Positions 1 to 15,602 of a stretch of DNA of 16,383 nt are shown here, in pieces. The stretch is taken from the IMG/VR virus record IMGVR_UViG_2630968533_000009; one strand, written 5' to 3'. Both the position numbers and the translations under genes were made by a program. The notes under the pieces were generated by a model, which was not told the origin of the DNA, ran no database searches, and was given only the letters and a program-made list of their open reading frames with translations. How positions within the stretch are numbered: the first letter of the stretch is position 1; each line of letters starts with the position of its first letter. The stretch comes from a virus (Duplodnaviria; Heunggongvirae; Uroviricota; Caudoviricetes).

Positions 1-348
1 TTACGAATTACTGCGGCGCTGTTGCTTTTCCGCATGTACGCGTTTCACAATCTTATAAATCCATTGCAGCGTCAGATTATATTTCTTCGCTAATTCGGCG
101 TAGTTGCGCCCATCGCACTCGCTATAGATTTGGTAGTCACGCTCCGATGCTCGTCCGGAGATCCCCTTAGGGAAATAGATGCTTTGTCCGCCCCAGTTAC
201 GCATCATTCGGTCGGCAATGGCAAAACCCACATTTTCTGCCGATGAACTGTCGAGATTGATGCTTTCAATCAGAACTTGCGATGCATGAAAAGCCAGGTC
301 GTTAATGATCTCCGGTGTCCGGGCCATCTCTTTTGATTTTCGTATCAT
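1..348 (-). CDS. Mor/C-family transcriptional activator (phage Mu middle/late activator-like)
   Basis: Complete 115-aa ORF: ATG at 348 with GGAG 7 nt upstream, TAA at 1..3. C-terminal segment (GGQSIYFPKG ... NYAELAKKYNLTLQWIYKIVKR) matches the helix-turn-helix region I recall for Mu Mor/C-type activators. Divergent from the lysis/tail genes. Confidence 0.8.
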   Translation of the reverse strand: MIRKSKEMARTPEIINDLAFHASQVLIESINLDSSSAENVGFAIADRMMRNWGGQSIYFPKGISGRASERDYQIYSECDGRNYAELAKKYNLTLQWIYKIVKRVHAEKQQRRSNS

Positions 349-569
349 TTTTCATCTCCATATATCTTGCATCCTGAATAAGACCCGATGCGTGTAAAAC
401 CACGGATATACGCTAAGCAGTTGTCATTACTGCTACTCAATACATTCAATAAACAAATAAACAATCACCAAAAATATAAACTTTTAATATTAATGAACGT
501 CATAAATTCACGAAATAAATATATTGTTTGGATTATGTTTCTTATCAACAGGAGTATCATTTTACACTA

Positions 570-589
570 TACTGTATACATATACAGTA
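570..589. promoter_or_regulatory. LexA (SOS) box, TACTGTATACATATACAGTA
   Basis: Read directly: CTGT-N8-ACAG with an AT-rich spacer, 19/20 match to the E. coli LexA consensus TACTGTATATATATACAGTA. Lies in the AT-rich region between the activator gene and the lysis operon. Confidence 0.8.
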
Positions 590-829
590 TTATTTTTACC
601 TGTAGAGTAAAAAGATCGTTTCCCTCACAGTCGCTGACTTTCTTAAACAAACTTTAAAAATCAAATAACTATCGACTATTCCTACGATCCACCATCATCT
701 TTCCCCTGCATAATGACGCGCTTATTAGCCTGGTCACCTTTTGCTCTTTAATTGCTGAGTCGATTTATTAGCGGGCTTGTTCATTTATAGAGAATCTATT
801 TTTTAAACTTATTTATTAAAGCTTTTTTC

Positions 830-838: not shown

Positions 839-885
839 TGGCGGGTTCTGACGACACTAAACGCTCACTTATCAGGAGATATCGT

Positions 886-1173
886 ATGAAAAAAGTCACT
901 TTTCCCCGGCTTTCCGGCTGGCTAGTCGCTTCCGCCGCGCTGTTTGTCGTGATCGGCTGGACCTCTTCCGCACAGATCCCGGTCGTCATTTATAAACTAA
1001 GCCTGGTTTCGCTTTCCGCGGTGCTGGGATACTGGCTCGATCGCAGTTTGTTCCCCTGGGCACGGCCTGACTCTTTTAGCCCCTGGAAGGAACCTCGTTG
1101 CTGCGCGGCGGCAATGATTCGCCGCGCCATCATCGTTGCCGCCGTCTGTCTTTCCGTCGCCTTAGGGCTATAG
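886..1173 (+). CDS. Small membrane protein, putative holin
   Basis: 95 aa with AGGAG 8 nt upstream. Three hydrophobic helix-length segments (WLVASAALFVVIGW, LSLVSLSAVLGYWL, IIVAAVCLSVALGL). Sits immediately upstream of the lysozyme gene. Confidence 0.45.
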   Translation: MKKVTFPRLSGWLVASAALFVVIGWTSSAQIPVVIYKLSLVSLSAVLGYWLDRSLFPWARPDSFSPWKEPRCCAAAMIRRAIIVAAVCLSVALGL

Positions 1174-1175
1174 TG

Positions 1176-1781
1176 ATGTGGCTGAAATATATCGCGTCTA
1201 TGATTATTTTCGTTCTTTTCCCGCTTAACGCCTCTGAACCGCCGCGAGCCTCTCTGGCATGGCGAAACGAACTAATTCGTACAGCTCGAGAAGTCTGGGG
1301 GCTGAATGCTCCAGTGGCCGACTTTGCCGGGCAATTACACCAGGAGTCCGCCTGGCAGCCAATGGTACGTTCCCCCGTTGGCGCACAAGGTATGGCGCAA
1401 TTTATGCCTGCTACAGCGACATGGATAAGCCAGTTGTATCCACAATTGCGTGAAAACAAACCGTATAACCCAACCTGGGCGATTCGCGCGCTGGTGCAAT
1501 ATGACCAGCATTTGTGGAAAAACATCTCTGCGAAAAATGATTGTCAGCGTATGGCGTTTACCCTAAGCGCCTATAACGGCGGTCAGGGGTGGGTTAACCG
1601 GGATAAAAAACTGGCTGCATCCAAAGGGTTAGATGCCACTAGCTGGTTTGGTCATGTTGAGCAAGTCAACGCCGGGCGCAGCGCCACGAACTGGCGAGAA
1701 AATCGTCGCTATCCAAAGATGATCCTCTATCAACATGCCGCCCGCTATTTACTCTGGGGACAGGCAAGCTGTCTTCATTAA
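1176..1781 (+). CDS. Lytic transglycosylase (SLT-domain) endolysin with N-terminal signal or signal-anchor segment
   Basis: Motifs QESAW (catalytic Glu-Ser), GMAQFMP and AYNGGQG match the SLT family signature. N-terminal MWLKYIASMIIFVLFPLNA is hydrophobic. Start set at ATG 1176 just after the holin stop (1171..1173) rather than the track's 1098, which would overlap the holin. Confidence 0.85.
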   Translation: MWLKYIASMIIFVLFPLNASEPPRASLAWRNELIRTAREVWGLNAPVADFAGQLHQESAWQPMVRSPVGAQGMAQFMPATATWISQLYPQLRENKPYNPTWAIRALVQYDQHLWKNISAKNDCQRMAFTLSAYNGGQGWVNRDKKLAASKGLDATSWFGHVEQVNAGRSATNWRENRRYPKMILYQHAARYLLWGQASCLH

Positions 1782-1793
1782 TCAGAGGGGCCG

Positions 1794-2108
1794 ATGAAAC
1801 TCAGTATCGATTTTTGGGAAGTGATCTCCCTTATGCTTTCCTTCGTTGGATTAATGTTTGCTGCCGGAAAACTGCTGTTAGCACAAATTGAAAAACGACT
1901 TAATGAGCGTTTTGAGTCTCTGGAAAATGCCCGCAGGGAATCAGAAACAAGTTGGTCGAAACTGGAAAGAGAATTTCTCGAATTTCGTGCCGAGCTTCCG
2001 CTGCATTATGTCCGCAGAGAAGATTATCTTCGTGGGCAAGCAGTATTAGAAGCGAAGCTGGATGCCTTATATAGCAAAATCGAGCTGTTACAACGTGGCA
2101 GTTATTGA
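1794..2108 (+). CDS. Membrane-anchored coiled-coil protein, lysis accessory (possible i-spanin-like)
   Basis: 104 aa with GAGGGG RBS. One N-terminal transmembrane segment (ISLMLSFVGLMFAAGKLLL) followed by a charged helical region. Last gene of the lysis cassette; no partner lipoprotein ORF found. Confidence 0.35.
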   Translation: MKLSIDFWEVISLMLSFVGLMFAAGKLLLAQIEKRLNERFESLENARRESETSWSKLEREFLEFRAELPLHYVRREDYLRGQAVLEAKLDALYSKIELLQRGSY

Positions 2109-2110
2109 AA

Positions 2111-2145
2111 AATCCCCACCCTTATGTAAGGGTGGGGATTTTTTT
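2111..2145 (+). terminator. Rho-independent terminator after the lysis cassette
   Basis: Perfect 14-bp stem AATCCCCACCCTTA / TAAGGGTGGGGATT with a 3-nt loop, followed by seven T residues (2139..2145), directly after the 2108 stop. Confidence 0.8.
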
Positions 2146-2180
2146 AACCATTCAATTTTTTCTCTAAATCACATTAAAAG

Positions 2181-2189
2181 ATTCTTCAC
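2181..2189 (+). promoter_or_regulatory. Candidate late-promoter/activator element ATTCTTCAC, copy 2, 64 nt upstream of the 2253 start
   Basis: Identical 9-mer to 830..838 with the same AAAG-type upstream context, located between the terminator and the first tail gene. Confidence 0.25.
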
Positions 2190-2252
2190 CTTCGCTGCTT
2201 CAGAATACATTTCAACGATAACGAAGTGAGCGGTAATTAAGGTACAGCCTAT

Positions 2253-2708
2253 ATGGAAATTTTATCTGTAATGAATTCTGTTGTGACCAGATTACGTGAA
2301 CACAACTCCGAAATGGATATATTTATTTCATCTAAGGATGCCCAGAAATATATTCCACAGACACAACGAGTTGCAGTGATTATTAATTATAGCGGTTCTG
2401 TCTTTGCTACGCCCGAAAGCAGTAATGCCATCGTGCAACAGCAAATACTCCGCTTAACCGCCACCGTTATTGTTGGCAAAAATTGTGATGCATTAAACGC
2501 ACTTGATCACATACGCAGCGCATTGGGTGGCCTTCCGCTTCCTGATTGTGATCGTCTGCTTTGGCTTGAAAAAGAAATTAATACGGGTGAGAGCGGCGGT
2601 TTCTGCCGCTACATCCTGGAAATGGCGACCAGCTCGCTGTTTATCGCTGAACAGGAAAGCACGGATCTTCCCCTGCTTACGGAAGTTAACTACGAGGAAA
2701 CTGAATGA
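2253..2708 (+). CDS. Phage tail protein, Mu gp37-like (tail completion/terminator candidate)
   Basis: 151-aa ORF, first gene of the tail operon, stop overlaps the next start (ATGA). Assignment rests mainly on position two genes upstream of the sheath, as in Mu-like tails. Confidence 0.4.
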   Translation: MEILSVMNSVVTRLREHNSEMDIFISSKDAQKYIPQTQRVAVIINYSGSVFATPESSNAIVQQQILRLTATVIVGKNCDALNALDHIRSALGGLPLPDCDRLLWLEKEINTGESGGFCRYILEMATSSLFIAEQESTDLPLLTEVNYEETE

Positions 2709-2902
2709 AATACATCTACAACGGCCCAGCAAGCGGCGTCACCCTTGCCGATGGACAAGAAATCTTATTGTGGCCGAACAGTGAAATTGATCTGCCAGAA
2801 GACAACGAGTGGGTCATGACCATGATTGCCCGCAATCATCTGACTCCTGTCATCACTCAGGAAGAACAAAATAACGTAGAGGAAATTGTACATGGCAGCT
2901 AA
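2705..2902 (+). CDS. Small tail-associated protein preceding the sheath (DUF2635-like)
   Basis: 65-aa ORF translationally coupled on both sides. A small conserved gene in this position is typical of Mu-like tail clusters. Confidence 0.4.
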   Translation: MKYIYNGPASGVTLADGQEILLWPNSEIDLPEDNEWVMTMIARNHLTPVITQEEQNNVEEIVHGS

Positions 2903-4316
2903 TTATCTGCACGGTGTAGAAACTATTGAAATTGAAACCGGCCCGCGTCCGGTTAAAGCGGTAAAATCCGCCGTCATCGCTTTAATCGGTACATCCCCCT
3001 GCGGTCCGGTAAATAAACCAACATTATGCCTTTCTGAAAGCGATGCTGCGCAGTTTGGCTCGACTCAGGCTAACTTTACGATCCCACAGGCACTGAAGGC
3101 AATTTATGACCACGGTGCCGGTACGGTGGTGGTGATTAACGTGCTGGATCCGGCAAAACATGGCTCCAACATCAGCAATGAGAGTATCACTTTTGATGCT
3201 AACAACCAGGCGAAGCTCGCTCACCGCAATGTGCGTAACGTGGTACTAAAGCCCTCTTCATCAAATTCATCAACCTTTAACACCGCAGCATTTAGCGTAG
3301 ATGAACAAACAGGCATAATTACCCGTAAAGGAGCCGACATTCCTCCTGGTGCGAAAGTTTGTGCCTATTATTCCTGGTGCGACCCTACAAAGGTCACCGC
3401 AGCCGATATTATCGGTACCGTAAATACCGCAGGCGACCGCACGGGGATGAAACTCCTTCAGGACACCTATAACCTGTACGGTTTCTACGCCAAAATCCTG
3501 CTTGCTCCTGTGTTTTGTACGCAAAAATCGGTGACTACTGAGCTGATTGCACAAGCGGAAAAACTCGGTGCGATTACCTACATTGATGCCCCGATTGGGA
3601 CAACATTCCAGCAGGTATTGGCTGGACGCGGTTCGCAAGGGGCTATCAACTTCAATACCAGCTCTGATCGTGCGCGTTTATGTTACCCACATGTCAAAGT
3701 TTACGATGGCATCACTAACCAGGAAATTCTTGAGCCTCTCTCTTCGCGTGCTGCCGGGCTGCGTGCCAAAGTAGACCTCGAAAAAGGTTTCTGGTGGAGC
3801 AACTCAAACCAGGAAATTCAGGGTATTACCGGTATTGAACGTTCGCTTTCCGCAATGATTGATGATCCACAAAGCGAAGTGAATCAGCTCAACGAAAACG
3901 GCATTACCACTATTTTCAATAGTTACGGCTCTGGTCTGCGCTTGTGGGGTAACCGCACAGCGGCATGGCCTACCGTGACCCATATGCGTAACTTTGAAAA
4001 CGTCCGCCGGACAGGCGATGTAATCAATGAGTCAATCCGTTATTTCAGTCAGCAGTATATTGATATGCCGATTAATCAGGCACTTATTGACGCGCTGACC
4101 GAATCGGTAAATACCTGGGGCCGAAAACTGATTGCCGACGGCGCACTGCTTGGCTTTGAGTGCTGGTACGATCCGGCACGAAATTCACCGGCTGAACTCA
4201 GCGCCGGGCATTTATTGCTGAGCTATAAATTCACCCCGCCACCGCCGCTGGAACGTCTGACGTTTGAAACTGAAATTACTTCTGAATATTTAGTCTCTCT
4301 GGAGAGCAATAGCTAA
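2892..4316 (+). CDS. Contractile tail sheath protein
   Basis: About 474 aa. N-terminus MAANYLHGVETIEIETGPRP resembles the P2 FI / Mu L sheath N-terminus. ATG 2892 with GAGGAA RBS preferred over the track's TTG at 2886. Confidence 0.9.
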   Translation: MAANYLHGVETIEIETGPRPVKAVKSAVIALIGTSPCGPVNKPTLCLSESDAAQFGSTQANFTIPQALKAIYDHGAGTVVVINVLDPAKHGSNISNESITFDANNQAKLAHRNVRNVVLKPSSSNSSTFNTAAFSVDEQTGIITRKGADIPPGAKVCAYYSWCDPTKVTAADIIGTVNTAGDRTGMKLLQDTYNLYGFYAKILLAPVFCTQKSVTTELIAQAEKLGAITYIDAPIGTTFQQVLAGRGSQGAINFNTSSDRARLCYPHVKVYDGITNQEILEPLSSRAAGLRAKVDLEKGFWWSNSNQEIQGITGIERSLSAMIDDPQSEVNQLNENGITTIFNSYGSGLRLWGNRTAAWPTVTHMRNFENVRRTGDVINESIRYFSQQYIDMPINQALIDALTESVNTWGRKLIADGALLGFECWYDPARNSPAELSAGHLLLSYKFTPPPPLERLTFETEITSEYLVSLESNS

Positions 4317-4840
4317 TGGCTGGAAAAATTCAAATTAACCGTATTACCAACGCCAATATTTATCTCGATGGTAATAACCTTTTAGGTCGTGCAACAGAAA
4401 TTAAATTGCCGGATGTAAGTTTAATTATGCAGGAGCATAAAGCACTGGGCATGGTGGGTAAAATCGAACTCCCGGCAGGTTTCGATAAACTGGAGGGCGA
4501 AATTAAATGGAACTCCTTCTATCAGGACGTAATGCGTAAAACGGCAAACCCGTGGCAGGCGGTTGCATTACAGTGCCGCTCCAGTATTGATTGCTATAAC
4601 TCCCAGGGGAAAGCGAATCAATTAGCGCTAGTGACACATTTAACCGTGATGTTTAAAAAGAATCCACTGGGCACATTTAAACAGAATGAAAACCCGGAAT
4701 TCAGCAGCGCCTTTGGTTGCACTTATATTAAACAAGTAGTTGATGGTGAAACGCTGCTTGAACTTGATTATATGGCCAATATTTTCCGGGTTAATGGTGT
4801 GGATCAATTAAGTACCTATCGCAATAACATCGGTGGCTAA
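4316..4840 (+). CDS. Tail tube protein
   Basis: 174-aa ORF immediately after the sheath, start overlapping the sheath stop (TAATG). Size and position match P2 FII / Mu M-type tube proteins. Confidence 0.8.
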   Translation: MAGKIQINRITNANIYLDGNNLLGRATEIKLPDVSLIMQEHKALGMVGKIELPAGFDKLEGEIKWNSFYQDVMRKTANPWQAVALQCRSSIDCYNSQGKANQLALVTHLTVMFKKNPLGTFKQNENPEFSSAFGCTYIKQVVDGETLLELDYMANIFRVNGVDQLSTYRNNIGG

Positions 4841-4844
4841 GTTA

Positions 4845-4864
4845 TTCGGGGCTACGGCCCCGAA
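4845..4864 (+). other. RNA hairpin after the tube gene (8-bp GC-rich stem, 4-nt loop)
   Basis: TTCGGGGC-tacg-GCCCCGAA is a perfect inverted repeat 5 nt after the tube stop, with no long T tract. Likely an mRNA-stabilising or partial-termination element. Confidence 0.5.
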
Positions 4865-4890
4865 CTTTGCAAAATAAATAAGGACACAAA

Positions 4891-5208
4891 ATGAAAGAAC
4901 ATTATATCTTGCAGTTTCCATTTACGTCGGCAGCAGGAAATAATATCGACACGCTGCAATTACGTCGCCTGAAAGTAAAAGATATGCGCAACGCCCGCCG
5001 GATCAGCGAAAAGCCAGAAGAGTGGGATGAACCGCTGATGGCGGCGATGACCGGACTGGTGCCAGAAGATTTAGCCGAAATGGATTTGCTGGATTACCAG
5101 GCATTGCAGAAACGATTTCAATCCATGCTTACCGTGGTTACAGAATCCTCCCCTGCTATGGCAGGCAATGGCGCTACTGGCGAGATGGTTTCGCTTTCCG
5201 CCCAGTGA
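4891..5208 (+). CDS. Tail assembly chaperone (gpE/gpG-like)
   Basis: 105-aa acidic ORF between tube and tape measure, the conserved chaperone position. AAGGA RBS. Confidence 0.5.
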   Translation: MKEHYILQFPFTSAAGNNIDTLQLRRLKVKDMRNARRISEKPEEWDEPLMAAMTGLVPEDLAEMDLLDYQALQKRFQSMLTVVTESSPAMAGNGATGEMVSLSAQ

Positions 5209-5282
5209 GATAGACGCCCTTACCGTCGATGACTTTAGCAACTGGCTGGATGAAGCCAGCGCCCAAATAAAAATCGAATATG

Positions 5283-5307
5283 ACTCGCAGACCTGATGTC
5301 TGCGAGT
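5283..5307 (+). other. Hairpin in the chaperone-tape measure spacer (10-bp stem, 5-nt loop)
   Basis: ACTCGCAGAC-ctgat-GTCTGCGAGT is a perfect inverted repeat. It covers the stop of the +1-frame extension of the chaperone. Confidence 0.5.
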
Positions 5308-5397
5308 TTCCCAAGCCCGTCAGGTTTATTTCTTCCCTGCCCCTTTTTTTAGAAAAATAACCAGCGGGCCATTATCAATATTTAAAGAGAAACAATT

Positions 5398-7773
5398 TTG
5401 GCCAACGATATTATTACCCAGCTTCAGGCGCGTAATGAGACGTTGACGCAGGCAATAGCCCGTTACGGCTCACTCAACGCCAGAACATTGTTAACTCTCT
5501 CTACTCAGCAGGCGACAGTTATCAAACTAACGCAGCAGCTTGCCGATTCCGCTCTCCGCCTGGAGGAAAATAGCCGCAGCCGCGCTAATCTGATGGAGAA
5601 AACCCAAACATTTGCCGGGCAATTTAGCAAAGTATTCAATGTTGAAGCCCCCGACTGGAAGTTGCCGTATGAGTTTCAGGACAACATGGTCAATATGGCG
5701 ACCAAAGGTGGGATGAATGCTACAACCCGCGAGACGCTCAGCCTTAATCTGCGCGACTGGAGCATGGATTTTAACCAGCAGCAGACCACCTTACAGAACG
5801 CAGCCCAAACGCTGATCGAAGGCAATTTGTCGTCGATGCAGGATCTCAACCGTTATATGCCGGAGATCGCCAAAGCTGCCACCGCCACGCGCGAAAGTGC
5901 TGAAACGTGGGCGAATGCCGCGCTCGCGACTCATGATCGACTGAATATTGCCCCGGAAAATTTCCACGCCGCGCAAAACATGATGTACGGCATTAGCAAA
6001 AGCGGTGGGCCTGCCATTGCTGAACAAACGCAGTGGATAGAGAAATTTGCAGGTAAAACCGGCGCTCAGGGTCTGGAAGGTATGGCTGAACTGACTGCCG
6101 CCATGCAGATCGCAATGAAAAATGGGGCCAGCGCCAGTGCGGCGGCGGAGAATTTTGACCACTTTCTGCAAACCACCTTTTCGAAAAAAACCGATAGCTG
6201 GTTCGCCAGCCAGGGCGTCGATCTGCAAGGCTCTCTGCTTGAACATCAGCAAAACGGTATGGGTGTTAGCGAAGCCATGACTCATATCGTACAAATGCAG
6301 CTTGAGAAGATGAACCCGGCGATCCTCGACACCTTCAAACGTACTATGCAGATTGAAGATTTATCTGCTCGCAGCAATGCGCTGCAATCGATGGTGTCGC
6401 AATTTAATCTGGGCGAAATGTTCGGCGATGTGCAAACGGTGGAATTCCTGGCACCTATGCTGGCGAATATGGAGGAATATCGCCAGTTAAAAGCCTCTGC
6501 CATGCAAGCCACCAGCAAGAATCTGATTAACGCTGACTTTTCTGCGCAAATGGCCTCGCCCATTGAACAGACTAAAGCGTTACAGCTGGCATTAAATGAT
6601 TTATGGCTCAGCATTGGTTTGCAGCTTATGCCGGCGATTGGCGAGCTGGCACAAAGCCTTACGACGGTTATTCGCCAGTTCAGCGCCTGGCTACGCGAAC
6701 ATCCGGCGCTGGTGCAAAACATTGCGAAAATCGTCGGGGCGGTTTGGCTGTTTAACGGCGCGCTGAATGTTTTAAAGCTGGGCGCGAACCTCATCACCTC
6801 GCCGTTTATTCGTCTGGTCGATATCTTCCTGAAAGTCAAGGCAAGTCTGGCGCTCACAGGCGGGGCAAGTAAGATGCTATCAGCGGTTAAGTCATTGGGT
6901 GGCGGCGCAAAATGGCTAATGCAACTGCTTGGTCGTGGCCTGATTGGCGCACTGAAACAGGTAGGTCAGACCGTCTTCTGGTTGGGTAGGGTTTTATTGA
7001 TGAATCCCATTGGTCTGGTCATCACTGCGATTGCGGGCGCTGCTTATCTGATTTGTCGCAACTGGGAGCCTATCTCCAGGTTCTTTTCGACCATCTGGCA
7101 ACGTATCACCACGGCCTTTGACGGCGGCATTGCAGGAATTTGTCGGTTGATTCTCGACTGGTCACCGCTGGAGTTGTTCTATAGCGCCTTTTCCAGTGTG
7201 ATGAATTGGTTTGGTGTCGAGATGCCTGCAAGTTTTAGCGAGTTCGGCAGCAATCTTCTGGGCAGTCTGGTTGACGGCATAATGAATGCCTTCCCCGCTC
7301 TGAAAGGCATTATTGATCAGGTAAAAAACGCCATCCCAGACTGGCTAAAAACCACGATGGGTATTAGTACAGAAGGATCGGCTACAGCTATTACAAGCAC
7401 GACTAATACCGCATCCGTCTCCCCCGCGACCGTTGTTCCAGGCGTTGCCGGTGCGATTTTAACACCGCCGGTGGGCAAACAACTCGCGCCATCCGGCAAA
7501 ACGGCTACGCCGTCATCGGCGCCAGCGGCAAAAAATACAGCCGCCAAACCCGTATCTGCCTCTTTACCTGGTAAATCCGTAACCAAACCGGCGACGCTAC
7601 CCTCCCGTTCCTCAGGAAAAGTCCAGGTAAATTTTTCGCCACAAATTACCGTGCAGGGTAACGGACAAAACACCACTAAAGAGATTCAGAACGTGTTGAC
7701 GATGAGTAAACGCGAACTGGAAAGAATGATTAACGATGTAATGGCGCAGCAGCAGCGCCGGGGGTATGCCTGA
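5398..7773 (+). CDS. Tail tape measure protein
   Basis: 791 aa: helical N-terminal region, long central hydrophobic/Gly-rich section, Ser/Thr/Pro/Ala-rich C-terminal segment. Start appears to be TTG at 5398 (no in-frame ATG before an upstream TAA), so the start is less certain than the call. Confidence 0.85.
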   Translation: MANDIITQLQARNETLTQAIARYGSLNARTLLTLSTQQATVIKLTQQLADSALRLEENSRSRANLMEKTQTFAGQFSKVFNVEAPDWKLPYEFQDNMVNMATKGGMNATTRETLSLNLRDWSMDFNQQQTTLQNAAQTLIEGNLSSMQDLNRYMPEIAKAATATRESAETWANAALATHDRLNIAPENFHAAQNMMYGISKSGGPAIAEQTQWIEKFAGKTGAQGLEGMAELTAAMQIAMKNGASASAAAENFDHFLQTTFSKKTDSWFASQGVDLQGSLLEHQQNGMGVSEAMTHIVQMQLEKMNPAILDTFKRTMQIEDLSARSNALQSMVSQFNLGEMFGDVQTVEFLAPMLANMEEYRQLKASAMQATSKNLINADFSAQMASPIEQTKALQLALNDLWLSIGLQLMPAIGELAQSLTTVIRQFSAWLREHPALVQNIAKIVGAVWLFNGALNVLKLGANLITSPFIRLVDIFLKVKASLALTGGASKMLSAVKSLGGGAKWLMQLLGRGLIGALKQVGQTVFWLGRVLLMNPIGLVITAIAGAAYLICRNWEPISRFFSTIWQRITTAFDGGIAGICRLILDWSPLELFYSAFSSVMNWFGVEMPASFSEFGSNLLGSLVDGIMNAFPALKGIIDQVKNAIPDWLKTTMGISTEGSATAITSTTNTASVSPATVVPGVAGAILTPPVGKQLAPSGKTATPSSAPAAKNTAAKPVSASLPGKSVTKPATLPSRSSGKVQVNFSPQITVQGNGQNTTKEIQNVLTMSKRELERMINDVMAQQQRRGYA

Positions 7774-8726
7774 TGTATGCCGTTTTAGGAGAGATTGAAT
7801 TTAAGGTTGTCACATTCTGGGACGGCTTTAAAAGCACAATGGGCGTGGATTACGCCACACATGCCCGTATAGAAGGCAAACCCGGCGTGCAGTTTATTGG
7901 CGATAAGCTGGATATGCTGGCGCTGGAATTTTCCCTGCACAGCCAGTTTTGCCAGCCCACAACAGAGCTGAACCGACTGCGTGAAGCCATGCTTGCTCAC
8001 AAGGCGATGGCACTGGTATTTGGCAATGGCGATTATCGCGGCTGGTTTGTGATTACGGAGCTAACCGCCACCCACCAGCACACCGATCCCTGGGGCAATG
8101 TGATTGCCCAAAACGGAACGATGTCGCTCCAGGAGTACACCGGCGATCCTAAAAATCCACTTTTACCTCCGGCGATTACCACCCAGGAGCCCAACATCGA
8201 GGAAAAGGCGAGCGATTTTCCCGACAAGGTGGAGTCCTGGTTTGATCAGATATTAAACGCCATCGAAGAAGGTATGCGTAAGGCCAAAGAGATGCTGGAT
8301 GAACTGACACAAGCCATTGAAGATATTAAAAAAACGGTGGCAAAAGTGAAAGCAATGATTAAAGAGGCCAAAGCGTTAAAAGAAAAGTGTGAAAAGATAA
8401 TTACGTCATTGAAAAAGACAATCGACGCCATCGAAACCCTGTTTAAACAGCCAATGGATCTGCAAACGCTGGCAGGACTCCCAAAAGCGTTGTCGGCGCA
8501 GATTAAAACTTTACTGGGTAACATGCCAGGTATCCGGGACTGCGCCAATGACGCCAGTACACTGGTTGACCATGCTCAGGCGCTTTTCGACGACATTACC
8601 AGCGACATCGCCGAAGCGACGTTTGATAAAGCCGCAACGTTGGTTGATCAGGCACGAACAACGGTACAACAAACCACTCCCACAGTGAGCCAGCTTGCTG
8701 CCGCGACCATTACGAGGATCTGGTGA
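7773..8726 (+). CDS. gpU-like tail protein with a long C-terminal coiled-coil extension
   Basis: N-terminal ~130 aa (MYAVLGEIEFKV ... DY ... FIG ... LALEF ... GWFVITE) follows the pattern I recall for P2 gpU. The C-terminal ~185 aa are Lys/Glu/Ala-rich and heptad-like. Start overlaps the tape measure stop (ATGA). Confidence 0.6.
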   Translation: MYAVLGEIEFKVVTFWDGFKSTMGVDYATHARIEGKPGVQFIGDKLDMLALEFSLHSQFCQPTTELNRLREAMLAHKAMALVFGNGDYRGWFVITELTATHQHTDPWGNVIAQNGTMSLQEYTGDPKNPLLPPAITTQEPNIEEKASDFPDKVESWFDQILNAIEEGMRKAKEMLDELTQAIEDIKKTVAKVKAMIKEAKALKEKCEKIITSLKKTIDAIETLFKQPMDLQTLAGLPKALSAQIKTLLGNMPGIRDCANDASTLVDHAQALFDDITSDIAEATFDKAATLVDQARTTVQQTTPTVSQLAAATITRIW

Positions 8727-8935
8727 TGCGATACCTTGAACATATCACCACCGACGGCGAACGCTGGGATAATCTGGCATGGCATTACTACGGTGATGCG
8801 CTGGCTTATGAACGCATAATCGCCGCCAATCCACATGTAGCCATTTACCCGGTACTGCCTTCCGGTATTCAGCTCATTATTCCGGTCATTTCCGTCAATA
8901 AAACCTTATCGGAGATCCCACCATGGCTGAGATAA
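8726..8935 (+). CDS. Tail protein X (gpX-like)
   Basis: About 70 aa with GD/ER-WD ... YYGD ... ANP ... LPSG pattern resembling P2 gpX. ATG 8726 overlaps the upstream TGA; GTG 8723 is an alternative start. Confidence 0.7.
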   Translation: MRYLEHITTDGERWDNLAWHYYGDALAYERIIAANPHVAIYPVLPSGIQLIIPVISVNKTLSEIPPWLR

Positions 8936-9963
8936 GCGTAACTGGTGGCGTCTTTGCCACACTCACGCCCATTTTTACCCTCTGGTATGGGCATAAAGAT
9001 ATCACTTATGACATCACACCCTATGTCACCAGCATCAGTTACCACGACAGCATCAAAAACGAGTCGGATACCATCGCAATTACACTGGATGACACAGATG
9101 GACGCTGGATAAAAGAGTGGTATCCCGGCAAAGGCGATACGCTGGCGCTGCATATGGGTTATCAGGGAGAGAAGCTGCTCGATTGTGGTCAGTATATTAT
9201 TGATAAAATTGATATTTCAGCGCCACCTTCTACGGTAAATATTGATGGCATCGCCACTTCCGTCAATCAGGCGCTGCGCACCCGTAACAGCCAGGGTTTT
9301 GAAGAAACGACGCTTTCGGCTATCGCCAGCCGTATCGCACAAACTCACGGCCTAAAGCTGGTGGGCAAAATCGAGCCTCTGACAATTGACCGGGTGACAC
9401 AGTACGGCGAAACCGATGTTGGATTTCTCAAACGTCTGGCCAGTGAATATGGTTATGCCGTAAAAGTGACGACGAAAGAGCTGATTTTTTCACATTTACC
9501 CACGCTGCGCTGCCTGGCACCTGTGAAAAAGATCGACCGCAAAGACGTTTCGCATTTCACCTTCAAAGATACCATTAACCGTATCTACAAAAACGCCACC
9601 GTACAGCATCAAAATAGTAAGAAAAAAGAACTGGTTATCTACACTCACAACAGCCAGCAAAAACCGTCTGCCCGTGGAGTCGGCACCAGTGCCGACACGC
9701 TAAAACTGAACAGTCGGGCGACGGACGTTGGCGCAGCACAGGCAAAAGCCAACGCTGCACTCGACAGCCACAACGAATATCAGCAAACCGGAACGCTCAC
9801 AATGATGGGCTGCCCGGAACTGACGGCGGGCAATAAAATCGAGCTAACCGATTTTGGCGTGCTTTCCGGTCAATGGCTAATTGATAAATCGACTCACAGT
9901 TTTGTGCGCAGCGGCTATACCACTGAAATCGACGTGTCGCGCGGGCCAGCGACCAGCCAGTAA
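8923..9963 (+). CDS. gpD-like tail/baseplate hub protein
   Basis: 346 aa with DDTDG, TTLSAIASRIAQTHGLKL and ETDVGFLKRLA motifs matching the P2 gpD / Mu P family as I recall it. Confidence 0.85.
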   Translation: MAEISVTGGVFATLTPIFTLWYGHKDITYDITPYVTSISYHDSIKNESDTIAITLDDTDGRWIKEWYPGKGDTLALHMGYQGEKLLDCGQYIIDKIDISAPPSTVNIDGIATSVNQALRTRNSQGFEETTLSAIASRIAQTHGLKLVGKIEPLTIDRVTQYGETDVGFLKRLASEYGYAVKVTTKELIFSHLPTLRCLAPVKKIDRKDVSHFTFKDTINRIYKNATVQHQNSKKKELVIYTHNSQQKPSARGVGTSADTLKLNSRATDVGAAQAKANAALDSHNEYQQTGTLTMMGCPELTAGNKIELTDFGVLSGQWLIDKSTHSFVRSGYTTEIDVSRGPATSQ

Positions 9964-9972
9964 GGAGGAAAT

Positions 9973-10674
9973 ATGAAAGGAGTAACCCGTCAAACGGGGA
10001 TTATCAGCGATATTGACGAAACCAGCGTTCGGGTGCGGGTCACGCTCCCGGAGTGTGACAATCTGAAGAGCAACTGGCTTGCGGTACTTCAACGCAATTC
10101 CCAGGACAATAAAGACTACTGGCTACCGGATATGGGCGAGCAAGTGGAAGTTCTGCTGGACAATAACGGTGAAGATGGCGTGGTGCTGGGCGCAGTTTAT
10201 TCTACGGTTGACACCGCGCCTGTAGCCTCGCGCGACAAACGTTACGTCCAGTTTTCTGATGGCGCAGCGTTTGAATATGACCGCAGCACGCACCAGCTGA
10301 CGATCAACGGCGGTATCGAGAAAATCGTGATTGAGGTTATCAACGGTACCTGCCTGACATCGCCCAACGTTGAGATTAAAGCCCAACAGGTCACCGTGAC
10401 TTCCGATACCGTCGATGTTAAAGCGACCGATGTCAGCATCGACGCCACTAAGGTCGAGGTTAAAGCAGCAGCAGTGACGGTAGATGCGCCCATGAGCACC
10501 TTTACTGGCAACGTCACGGTAATGAAAAAACTCACCTGGCTTGGCGGGATGGCAGGAAGTGGAGGCATCGGTAACGCAGCCACGATAACCGGCAATGTCA
10601 ACGTGATCGGCAACGTTCAGGCCAGCGGCGCATTGCAGGACAGCGGTGGCAACTCCAACCACCATTCACACTGA
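9973..10674 (+). CDS. Baseplate central spike (gpV-like)
   Basis: 233 aa with a strong RBS (AAGGAGG). N-terminal domain followed by a Val/Thr/Ala-rich beta-helix-like repeat region and a His-rich C-terminus (NHHSH). Confidence 0.8.
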   Translation: MKGVTRQTGIISDIDETSVRVRVTLPECDNLKSNWLAVLQRNSQDNKDYWLPDMGEQVEVLLDNNGEDGVVLGAVYSTVDTAPVASRDKRYVQFSDGAAFEYDRSTHQLTINGGIEKIVIEVINGTCLTSPNVEIKAQQVTVTSDTVDVKATDVSIDATKVEVKAAAVTVDAPMSTFTGNVTVMKKLTWLGGMAGSGGIGNAATITGNVNVIGNVQASGALQDSGGNSNHHSH

Positions 10675-10679
10675 CGTTT

Positions 10680-10708
10680 AACCCGCCTGATGGCGGGTTT
10701 TCTCTTTT
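10680..10708 (+). terminator. Terminator-like hairpin between gpV and gpW genes
   Basis: AACCCGCC-tgat-GGCGGGTT (8-bp stem) followed by T-rich TTCTCTTTTT, inside the 98-nt gap between the two genes. Confidence 0.5.
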
Positions 10709-10772
10709 TAATCAATCAGTTTTCTAAATCGCTTTAATATCTCCACAGCCCGTTCAGGGCGAAAATACCCTC

Positions 10773-11132
10773 ATGAACACAAAAACACGCCCCTCAACGC
10801 TGCACTGGCAACCGGCCTTGCTGCGGCCTGAAGAATACGTCTGCGGACTGGATGATATTCACCAGGCAATACACATCATTCTGCGTACACCGCGCGGCAG
10901 TGATCCCCACAGACCGCTGTTTGGCAGCAACTTGTGGCACTACATCGATTACCCCATCGAGCGGGCTATCCCGCATGTGGTACGGGAGTCGGTGGAAGCC
11001 ATCCGCCAGTGGGAACCGCGCTGTCGGTTGCTGAAGGTGACACCAGTAATCGACGGCGAACATCTGACGTTACGTGTGCAATGGCGCGCCGCTGACGGCG
11101 TTATCAACTCAACGGAGGTGTTATGGCGATAG
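10773..11132 (+). CDS. Baseplate wedge protein (gpW/gp25-like)
   Basis: 119 aa with IHIILRTPRGS ... FGSNL ... WEPR pattern matching the gpW/gp25 family. Confidence 0.8.
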   Translation: MNTKTRPSTLHWQPALLRPEEYVCGLDDIHQAIHIILRTPRGSDPHRPLFGSNLWHYIDYPIERAIPHVVRESVEAIRQWEPRCRLLKVTPVIDGEHLTLRVQWRAADGVINSTEVLWR

Positions 11133-12100
11133 CCGAACCCAATTTTATTGACCGCGATCCTGCGCAAATTACCAGTGAGATGATTGCGCAATACGAAGAT
11201 GCCAGTGGTAAAAAACTCTATCCGGCACAGGCTGAGCGGTTGCTCATCGACCTGTTTGCCTATCGTGAAAACCTTGTACGCATCGCCATTCAGGAAGCGG
11301 CGAAACAAAACCTGGTCGCGTATTCCCGCGCGCCAATGCTGGATTATTTAGGAGAGCTGGTGGGCGTTCACCGTTTGCCTGCGCAGCCAGCAAAAACGAC
11401 GTTGCAGTTTTCGGTCGTCAGTGCGTATACCAGCAATATCCTGATTCCCCAGGGGACGCGGGCCAGTGCCTCTGATAGCGTGATGTTCGCCACCGATGAA
11501 GATGTTCTGCTTCCGGCCTGGAGTTTGCATATCGCCGTTCCTGCCACCAGCCTCGCAGCAGGTGAACAGGGTAACGGCTGGCAGCCTGCACAAATTAGCG
11601 CTCTGGTCGACAGGATTGGTCATTATGACATCAACGTAACCAACCTGACTGCGTCAACGGGCGGCTGCGGTGAAGAGAGCGATGACGCATTGCGCCAGCG
11701 TATCCAACTGGCACCAGAAAGCTTTAGTAATGCGGGCAGCTATGGCGCATACCGCTTTCATACGCTTTCTGTTAGCCAGTCGATTATTGACGTTGCAGTA
11801 CTGGGGCCGGACGAGGGATTGCCAGAAGGCTGCGTGGAGATCTACCCGCTAACGCTGTTTACCACCGCCGATCAGGAGACAACGCTGGCTGCGGCGCGTA
11901 AAGCGATTAGCCTCTGGACGCAACAGCGGCAGAAACATCTGGGGCAAGACATTGTGCCAAACCAGATAATCAAAGTGTTACAGGTCGATGGCGTCTATGA
12001 CGTTGCGCTGAACTTGCCTACAAAACGTATTTTGCAGGCGCATGAATGGGCGGAATGCACTGCAATAGACGTCACGATCGCCGGAGTTAGCGATGGATAA
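11123..12100 (+). CDS. Baseplate J-like protein
   Basis: 325 aa immediately after the gpW-like gene with overlapping start. Size and order match P2 gpJ / Mu baseplate J. Confidence 0.85.
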   Translation: MAIAEPNFIDRDPAQITSEMIAQYEDASGKKLYPAQAERLLIDLFAYRENLVRIAIQEAAKQNLVAYSRAPMLDYLGELVGVHRLPAQPAKTTLQFSVVSAYTSNILIPQGTRASASDSVMFATDEDVLLPAWSLHIAVPATSLAAGEQGNGWQPAQISALVDRIGHYDINVTNLTASTGGCGEESDDALRQRIQLAPESFSNAGSYGAYRFHTLSVSQSIIDVAVLGPDEGLPEGCVEIYPLTLFTTADQETTLAAARKAISLWTQQRQKHLGQDIVPNQIIKVLQVDGVYDVALNLPTKRILQAHEWAECTAIDVTIAGVSDG

Positions 12101-12809
12101 ATTGCTACCACCGCCGCCGCTTGCCAGCGATGAGCGTTTTTCGATTCTGGCAAATATCGCCGCCGAGCGTTTTGCCCAACTCGATCTGACGGCGTTGATG
12201 GTTTATCTGGTCGACCTGGTTGATGCTTCGGCATTACCAGCCCTTGCAGAACAATTTCACGTTCAGGGGTTGGAAGGTTGGTTATTTACCACCGATGAGC
12301 GGGAGAAACGCGAGTTAATTAAACAAGCCATTGAACTGCATAAATATAAAGGAACAATTTGGGCGGTGCGGCGGGTGCTGGAAATACTCTCCTTACCCGG
12401 AACTATTTCAGAATGGTTTGAATATGGGGGAAGGGCTTACTTTTTTAAGGTTGATATTACACTAGAGGAAAAAGGATTAAATGAAGATGAATTCAATGCA
12501 CTTATCACATTAATTCATGAATATAAAAATGTCCGTTCAAAGCTGGAAAGCATTGTTATTTGGCTTATTAATCGAAGCCCAATACCAGTTATTGGCAGTG
12601 CCATGCAAGGAGGGGAAGTCATTACAGTATTGCCTCCTGTTGCAGAAAGCCTCAGCCAGTCATCTGGAATATTTTTAGCGACAGGTTATTGTGTGGAGGA
12701 ATATATTCAACTACTACCTTATCAACCCGATCGACTAACACAATCCCAACCGATGAAGGTCGGCACAGGATACTGGAGCACCGAAATTATGTCTGTATAT
12801 CCGGAGTAA
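12093..12809 (+). CDS. gpI-like baseplate protein with extended low-GC C-terminal region
   Basis: N-terminus [16 protein letters not shown] is typical of the P2 gpI family. At 238 aa it is longer than P2 gpI, and the C-terminal part (about 12420..12720) is visibly AT-rich. Confidence 0.7.
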
Positions 12810-12812
12810 TAA

Positions 12813-14422
12813 TGGCAAGTGAATTTTTTACAATATTAACTGCTGCAGGCAAAGCCAAAATTGCCTCAGCACTGGCCGAGCAAAAACAGATCCGTCTGCA
12901 AACTATGGTAGTTGGCGACGGTAATGGTAAATATATCGAACCGACAGAAAGTCAGACCAAAGTAGTCCATGAGGTCTGGCGTGGTCAGCTCAATACATTA
13001 AAAATTGCGCCAGATAATCCGGCCTGGGTTATCGCAGAAGCGATTATTCCCGAACAAGTCGGAGGCTGGTATGTACGCGAAGTTGGGTTACTGGATACCG
13101 ACGGCACGATGGTCGCTATTGGTAAATTCCCGGAAACCTATAAGCCACGATTACCTGCGGGGGCCAGTAAGCAAATCGTTATACGCGCGGTCATGGAAGT
13201 CACCAATGCAGATGCGGTGACGCTTTTGATCGACCCTTCAGTCGTTGTGGCAACCAGGGAATATGTCGATGACGCGTTGAAAACACATCAGCAATCACGA
13301 AATCATCCTGATGCGACGCTGACACAAAAAGGTTTTACGCAGCTGAGTAATGCGACTAATAGCGATGATGAAACCAAAGCGGCCACGCCAAAAGCGGTAA
13401 AAACGGCATATGACCTGGCAAATAGCAAAGCTGCCACCAGTCATAATCATGCCTGGAATCAGATTACTGGTATCCCTGATGGTACACTGACGCAGAAAGG
13501 AGTCGTTAAGCTTAACAATACAACAAATAGCACCAGTACGACGGAAGCTGCAACACCAAGTGCGGTTAAGGCAGCGATGGATAAGGCTATTGCTGCGGCA
13601 CCGTCCAGCCATACCCATGCCTGGGGGCAAATAACAGGTATCCCCGACGGTACGCTGACGCAAAAAGGGGTCGTGAAACTTAATAATGCGACCAACAGCA
13701 CCAGTACGACGGAAGCTGCAACGCCGAACGCTGTTAAGGCAGCGATGGATAAGGCTATTGCTGCGGAAAGCTGTCCTGTTGGGATGCCTATTCCCTGGCC
13801 ATCTGATTCTGTACCTTCAGGCTACGCTCTGATGACAGGTCAGACATTTAATAAAACCTCCTATCCCAAACTGGCAATTGCATATCCATCTGGTGTTATT
13901 CCTGATATGCGCGGATGGATAATTAAAGGAAAACCATCCAGTGGGCGCGCTATATTATCTACTGAACTGGATGGAGTTAAATCACATAACCATACGGGCA
14001 GTATTTCGAGTACGGACTTAGGGACGAAATCTGTATCATCAATAGATCTAGGAACAAAGAACACTCAGTCATTTAATCATGGGATAAAAACAACAAATAC
14101 AGCAGGCGCGCATAGCCATGATAGTGGTTCTGGCGAAAGTAGTGAGGGGGGAAAACCTCGGTATGGTACTCGTGATAACACAACAAATAATTTTGGTTCT
14201 GGTGAATCAGATCATGACAATTACAAATTTAACACATCCACGGATGGAGAGCATGCACATTCAGTTAATGTTGGCTCACACTCTCACTCTGTTATTTTAG
14301 GGTCACATAATCATTCAATTGCCCTTGGTTCCCATAATCACTCCCTAACCATTAATAATACCGGCAACACCGAAAACACCGTCAAAAATATCGCATTCAA
14401 CTATATTGTGAGGCTAGCATGA
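12813..14422 (+). CDS. Tail fiber protein
   Basis: Conserved Mu S / P2 H-type N-terminal domain, three internal fiber repeats, collar-like segment ([11 protein letters not shown] ... [12 protein letters not shown]) and HxH-rich tip. Start set at ATG 12813 after the gpI stop; the track's 12689 start is an upstream in-frame extension. Confidence 0.85.
13306..13766 (+). repeat. Tandem tail-fiber repeats (about 56 aa / 168 nt period, three copies)
   Basis: Copies 2 and 3 (13469..13598 and 13637..13766) are near-identical in nucleotide sequence, differing mostly at synonymous positions. Copy 1 (from about 13306) is more diverged. Protein motif TLTQKG-x-LNNxTNS ... EAATP-x-AVK-x-A-x-D. Confidence 0.7.
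14264..14344 (+). repeat. Three tandem 27-nt repeats encoding x-x-x-G-S-H-x-H-S
   Basis: GTTAATGTTGGCTCACACTCTCACTCT / GTTATTTTAGGGTCACATAATCATTCA / ATTGCCCTTGGTTCCCATAATCACTCC, in frame within the fiber C-terminus. Confidence 0.7.
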
Positions 14423-15126
14423 ATACTTTTACCTTTTCCGATGAAGCTCAAATACTAACTGTATATAATTTTTCACAAGACTCCCAAGAATATATCGGTG
14501 AGTCTGATGCATACATTGCACCTAATACAGGCTTGCCAAATTATTGCACATTAATTTCACCTCCCGAAAAGGTTCCTGGTTTTACTCCAGTGTGGGAGAA
14601 TGAAACATGGAGACTTATTGAAGATCATCGAGGCCAAACTGTTTATAACAAAGTTGATGGTAGCCAGCTTATTATTCAAGAATTGGGCCAATTACCTGAA
14701 AATGTAACAGTCATTTCCCCGACAGGTTCTTTTGAACGTTGGGATGGTGAAAAATGGCAACCATCTATAACCGATGCTAAAGAGGCGAAATACTCTGCAA
14801 TCAAAAATCAACGCGATGCCATCACAACCGATTACATCATCATCAACAACCATCACTTCCACAGTGATACAAATAGCCGTATCCAACAGCTTTCACTCAC
14901 AAAAATGGGAGCGGAGAAAAAAATTCCGCCAGGTTTAATGTGGAAAACTAAAAATAATGGTCTGATTGAGTTAACCAACGAAATCGCTGCCCAGTTTGAA
15001 TCGGTCACCATGGATCACGATATGCGCTTGTTCGCAAACGCCCAGCGTCATATCGCGGCGGTGGAAGCACTGGACGATATTCAGGCGGTGCTCGACTACG
15101 ATTATTCAACAGGCTGGCAACCATGA
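14419..15126 (+). CDS. Tail fiber assembly chaperone (Tfa-like)
   Basis: 235-aa ORF directly after the fiber with ATGA start/stop overlap. AT-rich N-terminal two-thirds and a normal-GC C-terminal about 45 aa ending [10 protein letters not shown]. Confidence 0.6.
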
Positions 15127-15578
15127 GTAAAACCACTGTCTGGCTCGCTTGTTATAAGGGCCGAACAGAGCACCGTGGTATTGCCCGACTGGCTGACTGG
15201 CTTACCCGTAAAATCACACGCGGTCATTATTCCCACTGTGAATTAGCCGTTAAGCATGGTGAAAAGAGATACCTTTGTTACTCTGCATCACTGCGCGATC
15301 GCGGTGTACGCGGAAAGATAATGCCATTGCCAGCGGATAAGTGGGATATGCTGCCGCTCCAGGCTAGCCTTCAGGATGTGGAAACTTTTTTCCGTAAACA
15401 TGATGGCAAAAAATATGACTGGCGCGGAGCATTAGGAATTATTACCGGTAATAAAGAACAGCGCGATCGCCTGTTTTGCAGTGAATTTTGTGCTGAATTT
15501 CTGCAACTGAAGGAAAGCTGGCGCTATTCTCCAAACCACTTGTACGCTTTAGTCAGCAGCTGGCAATACCAGCAATAA
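15123..15578 (+). CDS. Hypothetical protein, possible LRAT / permuted NlpC-P60-like thiol hydrolase (accessory gene)
   Basis: 151-aa ORF translationally coupled to the fiber assembly gene (ATGA). Motifs YSHCELAV ... KHG and LFCSEFCAEF resemble the His ... His ... Cys order of that fold, from memory only. No signal peptide. Confidence 0.3.
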   Translation: MSKTTVWLACYKGRTEHRGIARLADWLTRKITRGHYSHCELAVKHGEKRYLCYSASLRDRGVRGKIMPLPADKWDMLPLQASLQDVETFFRKHDGKKYDWRGALGIITGNKEQRDRLFCSEFCAEFLQLKESWRYSPNHLYALVSSWQYQQ

Positions 15579-15583
15579 ATCAC

Positions 15584-15602
15584 GCCGGGCTTTATGCCCG
15601 GC
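15584..15602. terminator. GC-rich hairpin between convergent genes (possible bidirectional terminator)
   Basis: GCCGGGC-tttat-GCCCGGC, 7-bp all-GC stem, 6 nt after the 15578 stop and overlapping the stop of the minus-strand gene. Confidence 0.5.

Follow-up and report, generated by a model that had tools for sequence, protein, structure and literature searches.

A predicted high-affinity LexA operator most likely gates the Mor-type activator of a cryptic enterobacterial tailocin cluster

The window, by which we mean the whole 16,383-nucleotide stretch of DNA analysed here, opens with a minus-strand gene for a Mor/C-family transcription activator, followed after an intergenic region by a plus-strand lysis cassette and two plus-strand units of tail genes:

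1..348, minus strand: mor, coding for a Mor/C-family transcription activator of 115 residues (Pfam PF08765, 7e-38, 129 bits; Mor family in RefSeq)
886..2108, plus strand: lysis cassette (Pfam, RefSeq), made up of the next three genes
886-1173, plus strand: holin (Pfam Holin_2-3, 1e-26)
1176-1781, plus strand: SLT-domain lytic transglycosylase (Pfam SLT, 9e-15)
1794-2108, plus strand: membrane protein of the lysis cassette (RefSeq)
2253..10674, plus strand: Gp37, sheath, tube, assembly chaperone, tape measure, gpU, gpX, gpD and gpV (Pfam, RefSeq)
10773..15578, plus strand: baseplate proteins W, J and I, tail fibre, fibre-assembly protein (DUF4376) and a 151-residue protein (RefSeq)

In Escherichia coli strain CFSAN061771 the order is pgi, lysC, mor (minus strand), holin, SLT transglycosylase, membrane protein and tail genes, with mor directly abutting lysC. 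The first tail unit of this strain comprises Gp37, sheath, tube, chaperone, tape measure, gpU, gpX, gpD and gpV, and the second gpW, gpJ, gpI, the tail fibre, the fibre-assembly protein and a hypothetical protein; the cluster ends with two minus-strand cargo genes, after which comes yjbD. The cargo genes, at 15592-16383 (minus strand) and beyond, code for an RlaP-family nucleotidyltransferase (Pfam, 4e-96) and a slipin-family protein, and may be defence or accessory genes outside the tail module.

The contractile-tail set is complete, with sheath, tube, tape measure, baseplate and fibre all recognised by Pfam or RefSeq. Between lysC and yjbD, the RefSeq annotation contains no head, packaging, replication, integrase or repressor genes, and a gene for an S24-type autocleavable repressor beside mor is likewise absent from this interval. 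Because these gene classes are missing, the gene content points to a headless contractile-tail locus with its own lysis cassette, and thus to a candidate R-type tailocin. The best explanation for the cluster is that it is a domesticated, BcepMu/P2-like element. Our search of the literature on the cluster, its regulation and enterobacterial tailocins found no description of it.

Of 5426 complete E. coli genomes, 197 contain a match to the first 2.3 kb of the window, in every case on the chromosome and 95-100% identical. The orthologous cluster of Salmonella LT2, STM4198-STM4219, occupies the identical chromosomal site, and when one genome was scanned for each species, the pgi-lysC-mor-holin-SLT-gp37-sheath arrangement was also seen in Dryocola, Phytobacter and two Superficieibacter species. 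We refer below to a six-genus comparison, the named members of which are E. coli, Salmonella, Dryocola, Phytobacter and the two Superficieibacter species. Across these genera, protein identities are 70-90% for Mor, holin, SLT transglycosylase, membrane protein and sheath and 37-60% for Gp37, as compared with 87-94% for LysC. The shared arrangement, together with the 70-90% identities set against those of LysC, suggests that the element is old and stably placed. In the Salmonella Infantis sequence, a gtrABC operon for O-antigen glucosylation, with its own mapped start, lies between gpV and gpW (28735-31990 of that sequence).

Four features of the region between mor and the holin gene are needed for what follows:

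483..497, no strand: AT-rich palindrome TTTAATATTAATGAA, which aligns with the Salmonella segment holding two back-to-back basal promoters
558..566, readable on both strands: conserved flank CA(T/C)TTTACA, from the six-genus alignment
570..589, no strand: LexA operator (predicted SOS box) TACTGTATACATATACAGTA, assessed for sequence, uniqueness, score and conservation
611..668, plus strand: conserved "mid block" AAAAAGATCG..CCCTCAC-N14-TTAAAC..ACTTTAAAAATCAA, present in E. coli, Salmonella and Phytobacter and in part in Dryocola

The original prediction was of an SOS box matching the consensus at 19 of 20 positions, with the mismatch in the spacer, and flanked by a Mor-family activator gene on one side and a lysis/tail cluster on the other. 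Pfam and RefSeq bear out the location, and the comparison of TACTGTATACATATACAGTA with TACTG(TA)5CAGTA gave the same count, the sole mismatch being at position 10, in the spacer. The CTGT-N8-ACAG core is exact and has no second copy in the 16.4-kb window (0.17 expected); moreover, 570-589 is the single site in the window with three or fewer mismatches to the consensus, where none would be expected (200 shuffles). Weight-matrix scoring, which had been proposed as a check, gave 27.5 bits, with the heterology index at about 2.3, on an approximate, symmetrised LexA matrix derived from 26 known E. coli operators; these same operators scored between 11.8 and 28.0 bits on it, with a median of 20.5. 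The runner-up in the window, at 12334, scored 12.8 bits and was taken as a chance match because it lies within a coding region. The match at 570-589 is far beyond chance, and we estimate that, under uniform base composition, one this close would be expected about 5e-4 times per 5-Mb genome. The box is 221 nt upstream of the mor start codon and 296 nt upstream of that of the holin gene (ATG at 886).

A LexA box was found 220-310 bp upstream of mor in all six genera, although only 22% of the intergenic positions are invariant in the six-genus alignment. The most conserved non-coding 20-mers, jointly, are 558-577, which consists of the CA(T/C)TTTACA flank and the left half of the box, and the block at 798-823, upstream of the holin gene; each has 16 of 20 positions invariant. 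Within the flank, positions 558, 559 and 561-566 are invariant and position 560 is C in Dryocola. The box itself was read as the following alleles:

E. coli: TACTGTATACATATACAGTA, TACTGTATGCACATACAGTA and TACTGTATACACATACAGTA
Salmonella (serovar Infantis and one other genome): TACTGTATATATATACAGTT and TACTGTATGTATATACAGTT
Dryocola: TACTGTATAAATAAACAGTA
Phytobacter: TACTGTATGCATATACAGTA
Superficieibacter: TACTGTATGCATATACAGTC

Variation among these eight alleles is confined to spacer positions 9-12, to position 14 and to position 20, and the half-site letters CTGTAT and ACAG are constant throughout. That the half-sites are kept while the spacer varies is the pattern expected if the site were under selection for LexA binding. 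Among 70 more distant mor homologues, from Pectobacterium, Burkholderia, Pseudomonas, Pasteurellaceae and others, no LexA box was found between 1.5 kb upstream of the gene and 0.4 kb into it, and the box is therefore specific to the enterobacterial, lysC-linked clade. In Salmonella lineages without the tail genes the box has been deleted as well, and mor and its proximal basal promoter remain beside lysC; of four Salmonella genomes found by exact protein match, three have lost both the tail cluster and the box and one has an intact box. The deletion joint falls directly after the sequence ending in ATTATAAATTAAAAGAATG. We conclude that 570-589 is a real and conserved LexA operator, with a high affinity predicted from its sequence.

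Two conserved candidate promoters, one per strand, overlap the box. The minus-strand candidate, which reads toward mor, has a -10-like TAAAAT at 564..559 (TAAAGT in Dryocola) and, in all orthologues, an A-rich tract at about -38 to -46. With TAAAAT as the -10 element, the box would cover about -37 to -18; the -35 element is poor, being either CTGTAT or TGTATA within the box. It had been proposed earlier that TTGATA (548..543) could be the -35 partner of TAAAAT, but the geometry is wrong: on the minus strand TTGATA lies downstream of that -10, and the pairing was rejected. A minus-strand match returned by the promoter scan, ATGATA-17-CATAAT, was also rejected, as it is not conserved in Salmonella. 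The plus-strand candidate, found in a consensus promoter scan, consists of TTTACA (561-566) and TACAGT (583-588) with a spacing of 16, so that the box lies over its -10 element. We favour the mor promoter, with some confidence, as the one that is occluded, since in the Salmonella RNA-seq data described below mor was induced and no other gene of STM14_5050-5072 was; a plus-strand or dual arrangement is possible, if rather unlikely.

In Salmonella 14028, the expression of STM14_5073 rose from 49.0 to 204.5, or 4.08-fold, with nalidixic acid (RNA-seq with cut-offs of FDR<=0.001 and log2FC>=1; Merida-Floriano et al. 2021, PMC8072944, Dataset S1). By its length (348 bp) and its location 11 kb from malE, we identified STM14_5073 as STM4219/mor. 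Among the genes listed in that dataset, all but the 167 most down-regulated, no other gene of STM14_5050-5072 was differentially expressed (PMC8072944), and we infer that the lysis and tail genes of Salmonella fall in this range. The SOS induction originally predicted for the locus is thus borne out by the mor orthologue but not by any gene of STM14_5050-5072, a result that favours mor over the holin operon as the direct target. Possibly, the gtrABC insertion, which splits the Salmonella tail genes, is responsible for the apparent silence of the late genes there. The published Salmonella SOS regulon of 48 genes does not include STM14_5073, nor do the earlier lists gathered alongside it (PMC8072944, Table 1), and that study does not give the gene as box-associated, although its orthologues carry a near-consensus box about 230 bp upstream.

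Transcription start sites have been mapped by dRNA-seq in undamaged, late-stationary SL1344 (PMC3963941, supplement 13). The primary start of STM4219, at 4459159, has a 120-nt leader and a TATAAT -10 element, and STM4218 was assigned a divergent primary start at 4459135, with a leader of 432 nt (PMC3963941, supplement 13). We placed these starts on the Infantis sequence, at about 18458 and 18482, and from there onto the window by alignment. In Infantis, the box is about 107-126 bp upstream of the basal mor start and about 83-102 bp downstream of the rightward start. Neither of the two starts mapped in these undamaged cells overlaps the box, as is predicted for a LexA-repressed promoter. The mapping shows that mor of Salmonella has a LexA-independent basal promoter, which is not occluded because its start is some 107-126 bp from the box, and which fits the non-zero basal expression of the gene. 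By alignment, the basal starts of E. coli would lie in the region of the palindrome at 483..497. No further start-site or SOS data on these genes were found in PMC4643027, PMC3293720 and PMC8262899.

Each of the three transcription units of the cluster is preceded by an AT-rich block and a -10-like hexamer, the spacing of the first differing from that of the other two, and the second and third units are in addition preceded by a terminator-like hairpin and a T run:

798..822, plus strand: putatively Mor-dependent late-promoter block ATTTTTTAAACTTATTTATTAAAGC, before the holin gene; conserved in six genera and unique in the window
853-858, plus strand: -10-like GACACT, before the holin gene
2110..2146, plus strand: terminator-like hairpin and T run after the lysis cassette, aaatccccaccc-ttatgtaa-gggtggggattttttt, read by eye
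2156..2208, plus strand: second late-promoter-like block, TTTTCTCTAAATCACATTAAAAG, followed after about 23 nt by GAATAC (2203-2208), before the gp37/sheath operon
10680-10709, plus strand: terminator-like hairpin with a T-rich tail after gpV, read by eye
10720..10768, plus strand: third late-promoter-like block, TTTTCTAAATCGCTTTAATATCTCCAC (10720-10746), with AAATAC (10763-10768), before gpW

The hairpin at 2110-2146 is conserved in position in the orthologues aligned. In the second block CTAA, ATTAAAAG and AATAC show no variation across six genera. The third block, which is conserved between E. coli and Salmonella, is also found upstream of the Salmonella gpW homologue. The mid block at 611-668 resembles the late blocks in layout and might represent an additional Mor site or promoter. 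Paired GATC (Dam) sites occur within it in Salmonella and Phytobacter. The mid block showed neither a conserved RNA structure nor a terminator: its consensus fold was empty and single-sequence z-scores ranged from 0.6 to -1.6. We also considered a small gene or a small RNA in the intergenic region and rejected both: the ORFs present (20-89 codons) are not conserved, and there was no Rfam match at E<=1.

The intergenic region is broken in 11 of the 197 E. coli copies. In NZ_OW967966.1, ISKox3 is inserted at the exact centre of the box, giving TACTGT-ATACATAT-IS-ATACATAT-ACAGTA. In NZ_OZ546911.1, ISEc53, inserted the other way round, has split another allele at the identical register, giving TACTGT-ATGCACAT-IS-ATGCACAT-ACAGTA. 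Copies of ISKox3, ISEc53 and ISCfr12 (the last 85% identical) were sampled from E. coli, Klebsiella, Enterobacter and Providencia, on both chromosomes and plasmids. Of 15 distinct sites, 13 were between the CTGT and the ACAG of a LexA box, with duplication of the 8-bp spacer, and the tailocin box (spacer 576-583) had been hit twice independently. The other boxes hit were those of sbmC, of several plasmid umuD genes, of dinI-like genes and of an S24-peptidase gene; the two exceptions were an ISEc53 copy in fimB, at the half-box-like GTGTATATATAT, and one degenerate copy. The IS elements thus act as an independent biological reader that recognises 570-589 as the sequence of a LexA box. ISKox3-like sequence was present in 1644 of the 5426 E. 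coli genomes and on 1676 plasmids.

The transposase of these elements is an ordinary ISL3 DDE enzyme, and their targeting could depend on DNA-bound LexA. Beside the gene for its transposase, ISEc53 carries a passenger gene of the ClbS/DfsB family (DUF1706; 1209-1727 of the extracted stretch). Proteins of the ClbS type give protection from the genotoxin colibactin, and it is suggestive that a passenger related to DNA damage should be found on an IS with SOS operators as its targets. After insertion the half-sites are 1.3-1.9 kb apart; therefore, binding of a LexA dimer should be abolished and the SOS genes rewired. The searchable literature yielded no report linking ISKox3, ISEc53, ISCfr12 or ISL3 with LexA. 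We put even odds on a double role for the box, as the SOS fuse of an enterobacterial tailocin that is ancient and vertically retained and as the landing pad of a LexA-operator-homing clade of ISL3 elements.

The model that best accommodates these observations, and that we regard as likely, is that LexA occludes a damage-inducible mor promoter and that Mor, once made, drives the three late promoters, leading to lysis and to the production of tails. Its elements, that is, the occupancy of the box by LexA, the identity of the occluded promoter, the action of Mor at the late promoters and the production of particles, are inferred. In undamaged cells, LexA at 570-589 would block the overlapping promoter, most likely the mor promoter with TAAAAT (564..559) as its -10 element, and a separate, weaker basal mor promoter nearer the gene would escape LexA. 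Heavy DNA damage would lead to RecA-stimulated cleavage of LexA, the promoter would be freed and Mor would accumulate. Mor would then activate the late promoters before the holin gene (about 798-858), the gp37/sheath operon (about 2156-2208) and gpW (about 10720-10768), which in turn would bring about lysis and the formation of tails. An operator this near to consensus is expected to give late, threshold-like induction, as would suit a suicidal function. Since the late genes were not induced in Salmonella, it is the first step of the model, the damage induction of mor, that has published support there.

A LexA box over the -10 element is a classical arrangement, and it is what the plus-strand candidate offers. 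LexA could accordingly repress TTTACA-16-TACAGT, with a start near 595 and transcription toward the holin gene, so that lysis and tail genes, or else a leader transcript, would be under direct SOS control and mor under some other; in a variant, the one box would gate both of the overlapping divergent promoters. The scan scored this promoter at 9 of 12, its TTTACA is invariant in six genera and its TACAGT is found in five (AACAGT in Dryocola), and the conserved mid block is just downstream of the box. We nevertheless consider this improbable. It implies a leader of about 290 nt that has neither a conserved structure nor a conserved ORF, the holin gene has a strongly conserved promoter-like block of its own, and in Salmonella it was mor alone that responded to nalidixic acid, with no gene of STM14_5050-5072 differentially expressed.

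It is very improbable that bound LexA acts as a roadblock to a basal rightward transcript, starting about 83 bp upstream of the box, and so shields the lysis genes. LexA is not known to be an efficient block to elongation, and this reading leaves the induction of mor and the conserved TTTACA/TAAAAT flank unexplained; nor were STM14_5050-5072 induced by nalidixic acid. In its favour, the transcript from the primary start of STM4218 in SL1344, with its 432-nt leader, must cross the box (PMC3963941). Finally, the idea that the palindrome does not serve LexA here, being instead a relic, the operator of another protein or a mere insertion hot spot, could appeal to the ISL3 elements that target it and to the lack of another evident role for a site that is 220-300 bp away from either start codon, but it is hardly credible given that CTGT and ACAG are kept in six genera while the spacer varies, a signature of LexA specificity, that the cluster has no repressor gene, that the mor orthologue of Salmonella is damage-inducible, and that in Salmonella lineages the box was lost together with the tail genes while mor and its basal promoter stayed.

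The reading that we prefer, in which the box most likely gates the Mor-type activator of a cryptic enterobacterial tailocin and the cluster is turned on upon DNA damage, identifies a likely trigger, and the wiring behind it, for a tailocin-like cluster found in some 4% of complete E. coli genomes, with many clinical ones among them, as well as in Salmonella and at least three other genera sampled. If the model is true, SOS-inducing antibiotics such as quinolones would induce mor and possibly lysis and the release of particles. The box also adds a strong predicted operator that the published lists of the Salmonella SOS regulon have missed, and the IS-split alleles represent natural operator knock-outs. 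If confirmed, the homing of IS elements to LexA operators would be a new principle of target selection, one that would affect the evolution of SOS genes on plasmids (umuD, dinI) and on chromosomes (sbmC); the insertions would, if this is true, rewire SOS genes, including this tailocin in clinical E. coli.

SOS control of this type is already familiar, and the box of this cluster is a new example of it. In phage Mu, four C-dependent late promoters have poor -35 regions and an upstream activator site. As in the Mor/C cascade of Mu, a Mor/C-family protein is expected here to activate several late promoters, with three blocks in place of the four promoters of Mu. Unlike Mu, the present cluster has no transposition or head genes and a single Mor/C-family gene, which diverges from its own SOS-gated region and lies outside any early operon. 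BceTMilo was set aside as a comparison, being of the P2/Ogr/CI type and not comparable.

In Pectobacterium, RdgA/RdgB controls pectin lyase and carotovoricin, according to the passage of PMC13566846 that cites Liu, Chatterjee and Chatterjee (1994). There too a Mor-family activator, 50% identical to Mor, is the DNA-damage-responsive switch of a Mu-type tailocin. At the one P. carotovorum locus examined, however, a repressor gene with HTH_3 and Peptidase_S24 domains lies upstream of the mor homologue on the same strand (2729-4330 of the extracted stretch), which corresponds to the RdgA/RdgB layout, and at 13 Pectobacterium mor loci no LexA box was found from 1.5 kb upstream to 0.4 kb into the gene. 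Thus, a LexA box of the host appears to take the place of a dedicated repressor gene, which would be a different wiring of a known two-tier logic.

The dedicated repressor PrtR of Pseudomonas is LexA-like, and the activator PrtN has no relationship to Mor. The R- and F-pyocins controlled by these two proteins share with the present cluster a damage-sensitive repressor that governs an activator, which in turn governs lysis and tail genes (PMC5411513). Here, the proposed repressor is the host's own LexA and the activator belongs to the Mor family. Direct repression of a phage-derived regulatory gene by host LexA, which ties a prophage-type element to SOS without a cleavable phage repressor, has a precedent in tum of coliphage 186 and Salmonella Fels-2 and in the dinI-like antirepressors of the Gifsy phages (PMC8072944). 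Those antirepressors act on a CI-type repressor, whereas the regulator here is a positive activator of late genes and there is no immunity repressor.

Colicin genes carry tandem LexA boxes, whereas the present cluster has a single one. With the strong SOS operators of E. coli (sulA, umuDC, sbmC and the colicins), the box shares the same 20-bp palindrome and a very low heterology index; it differs from them in being 221 nt from the nearest start codon and, as we read the locus, in controlling an activator rather than the effectors. In common with the operators of colicins, it belongs to a function that would be lethal to the producing cell, so that a tight and late derepression makes sense.
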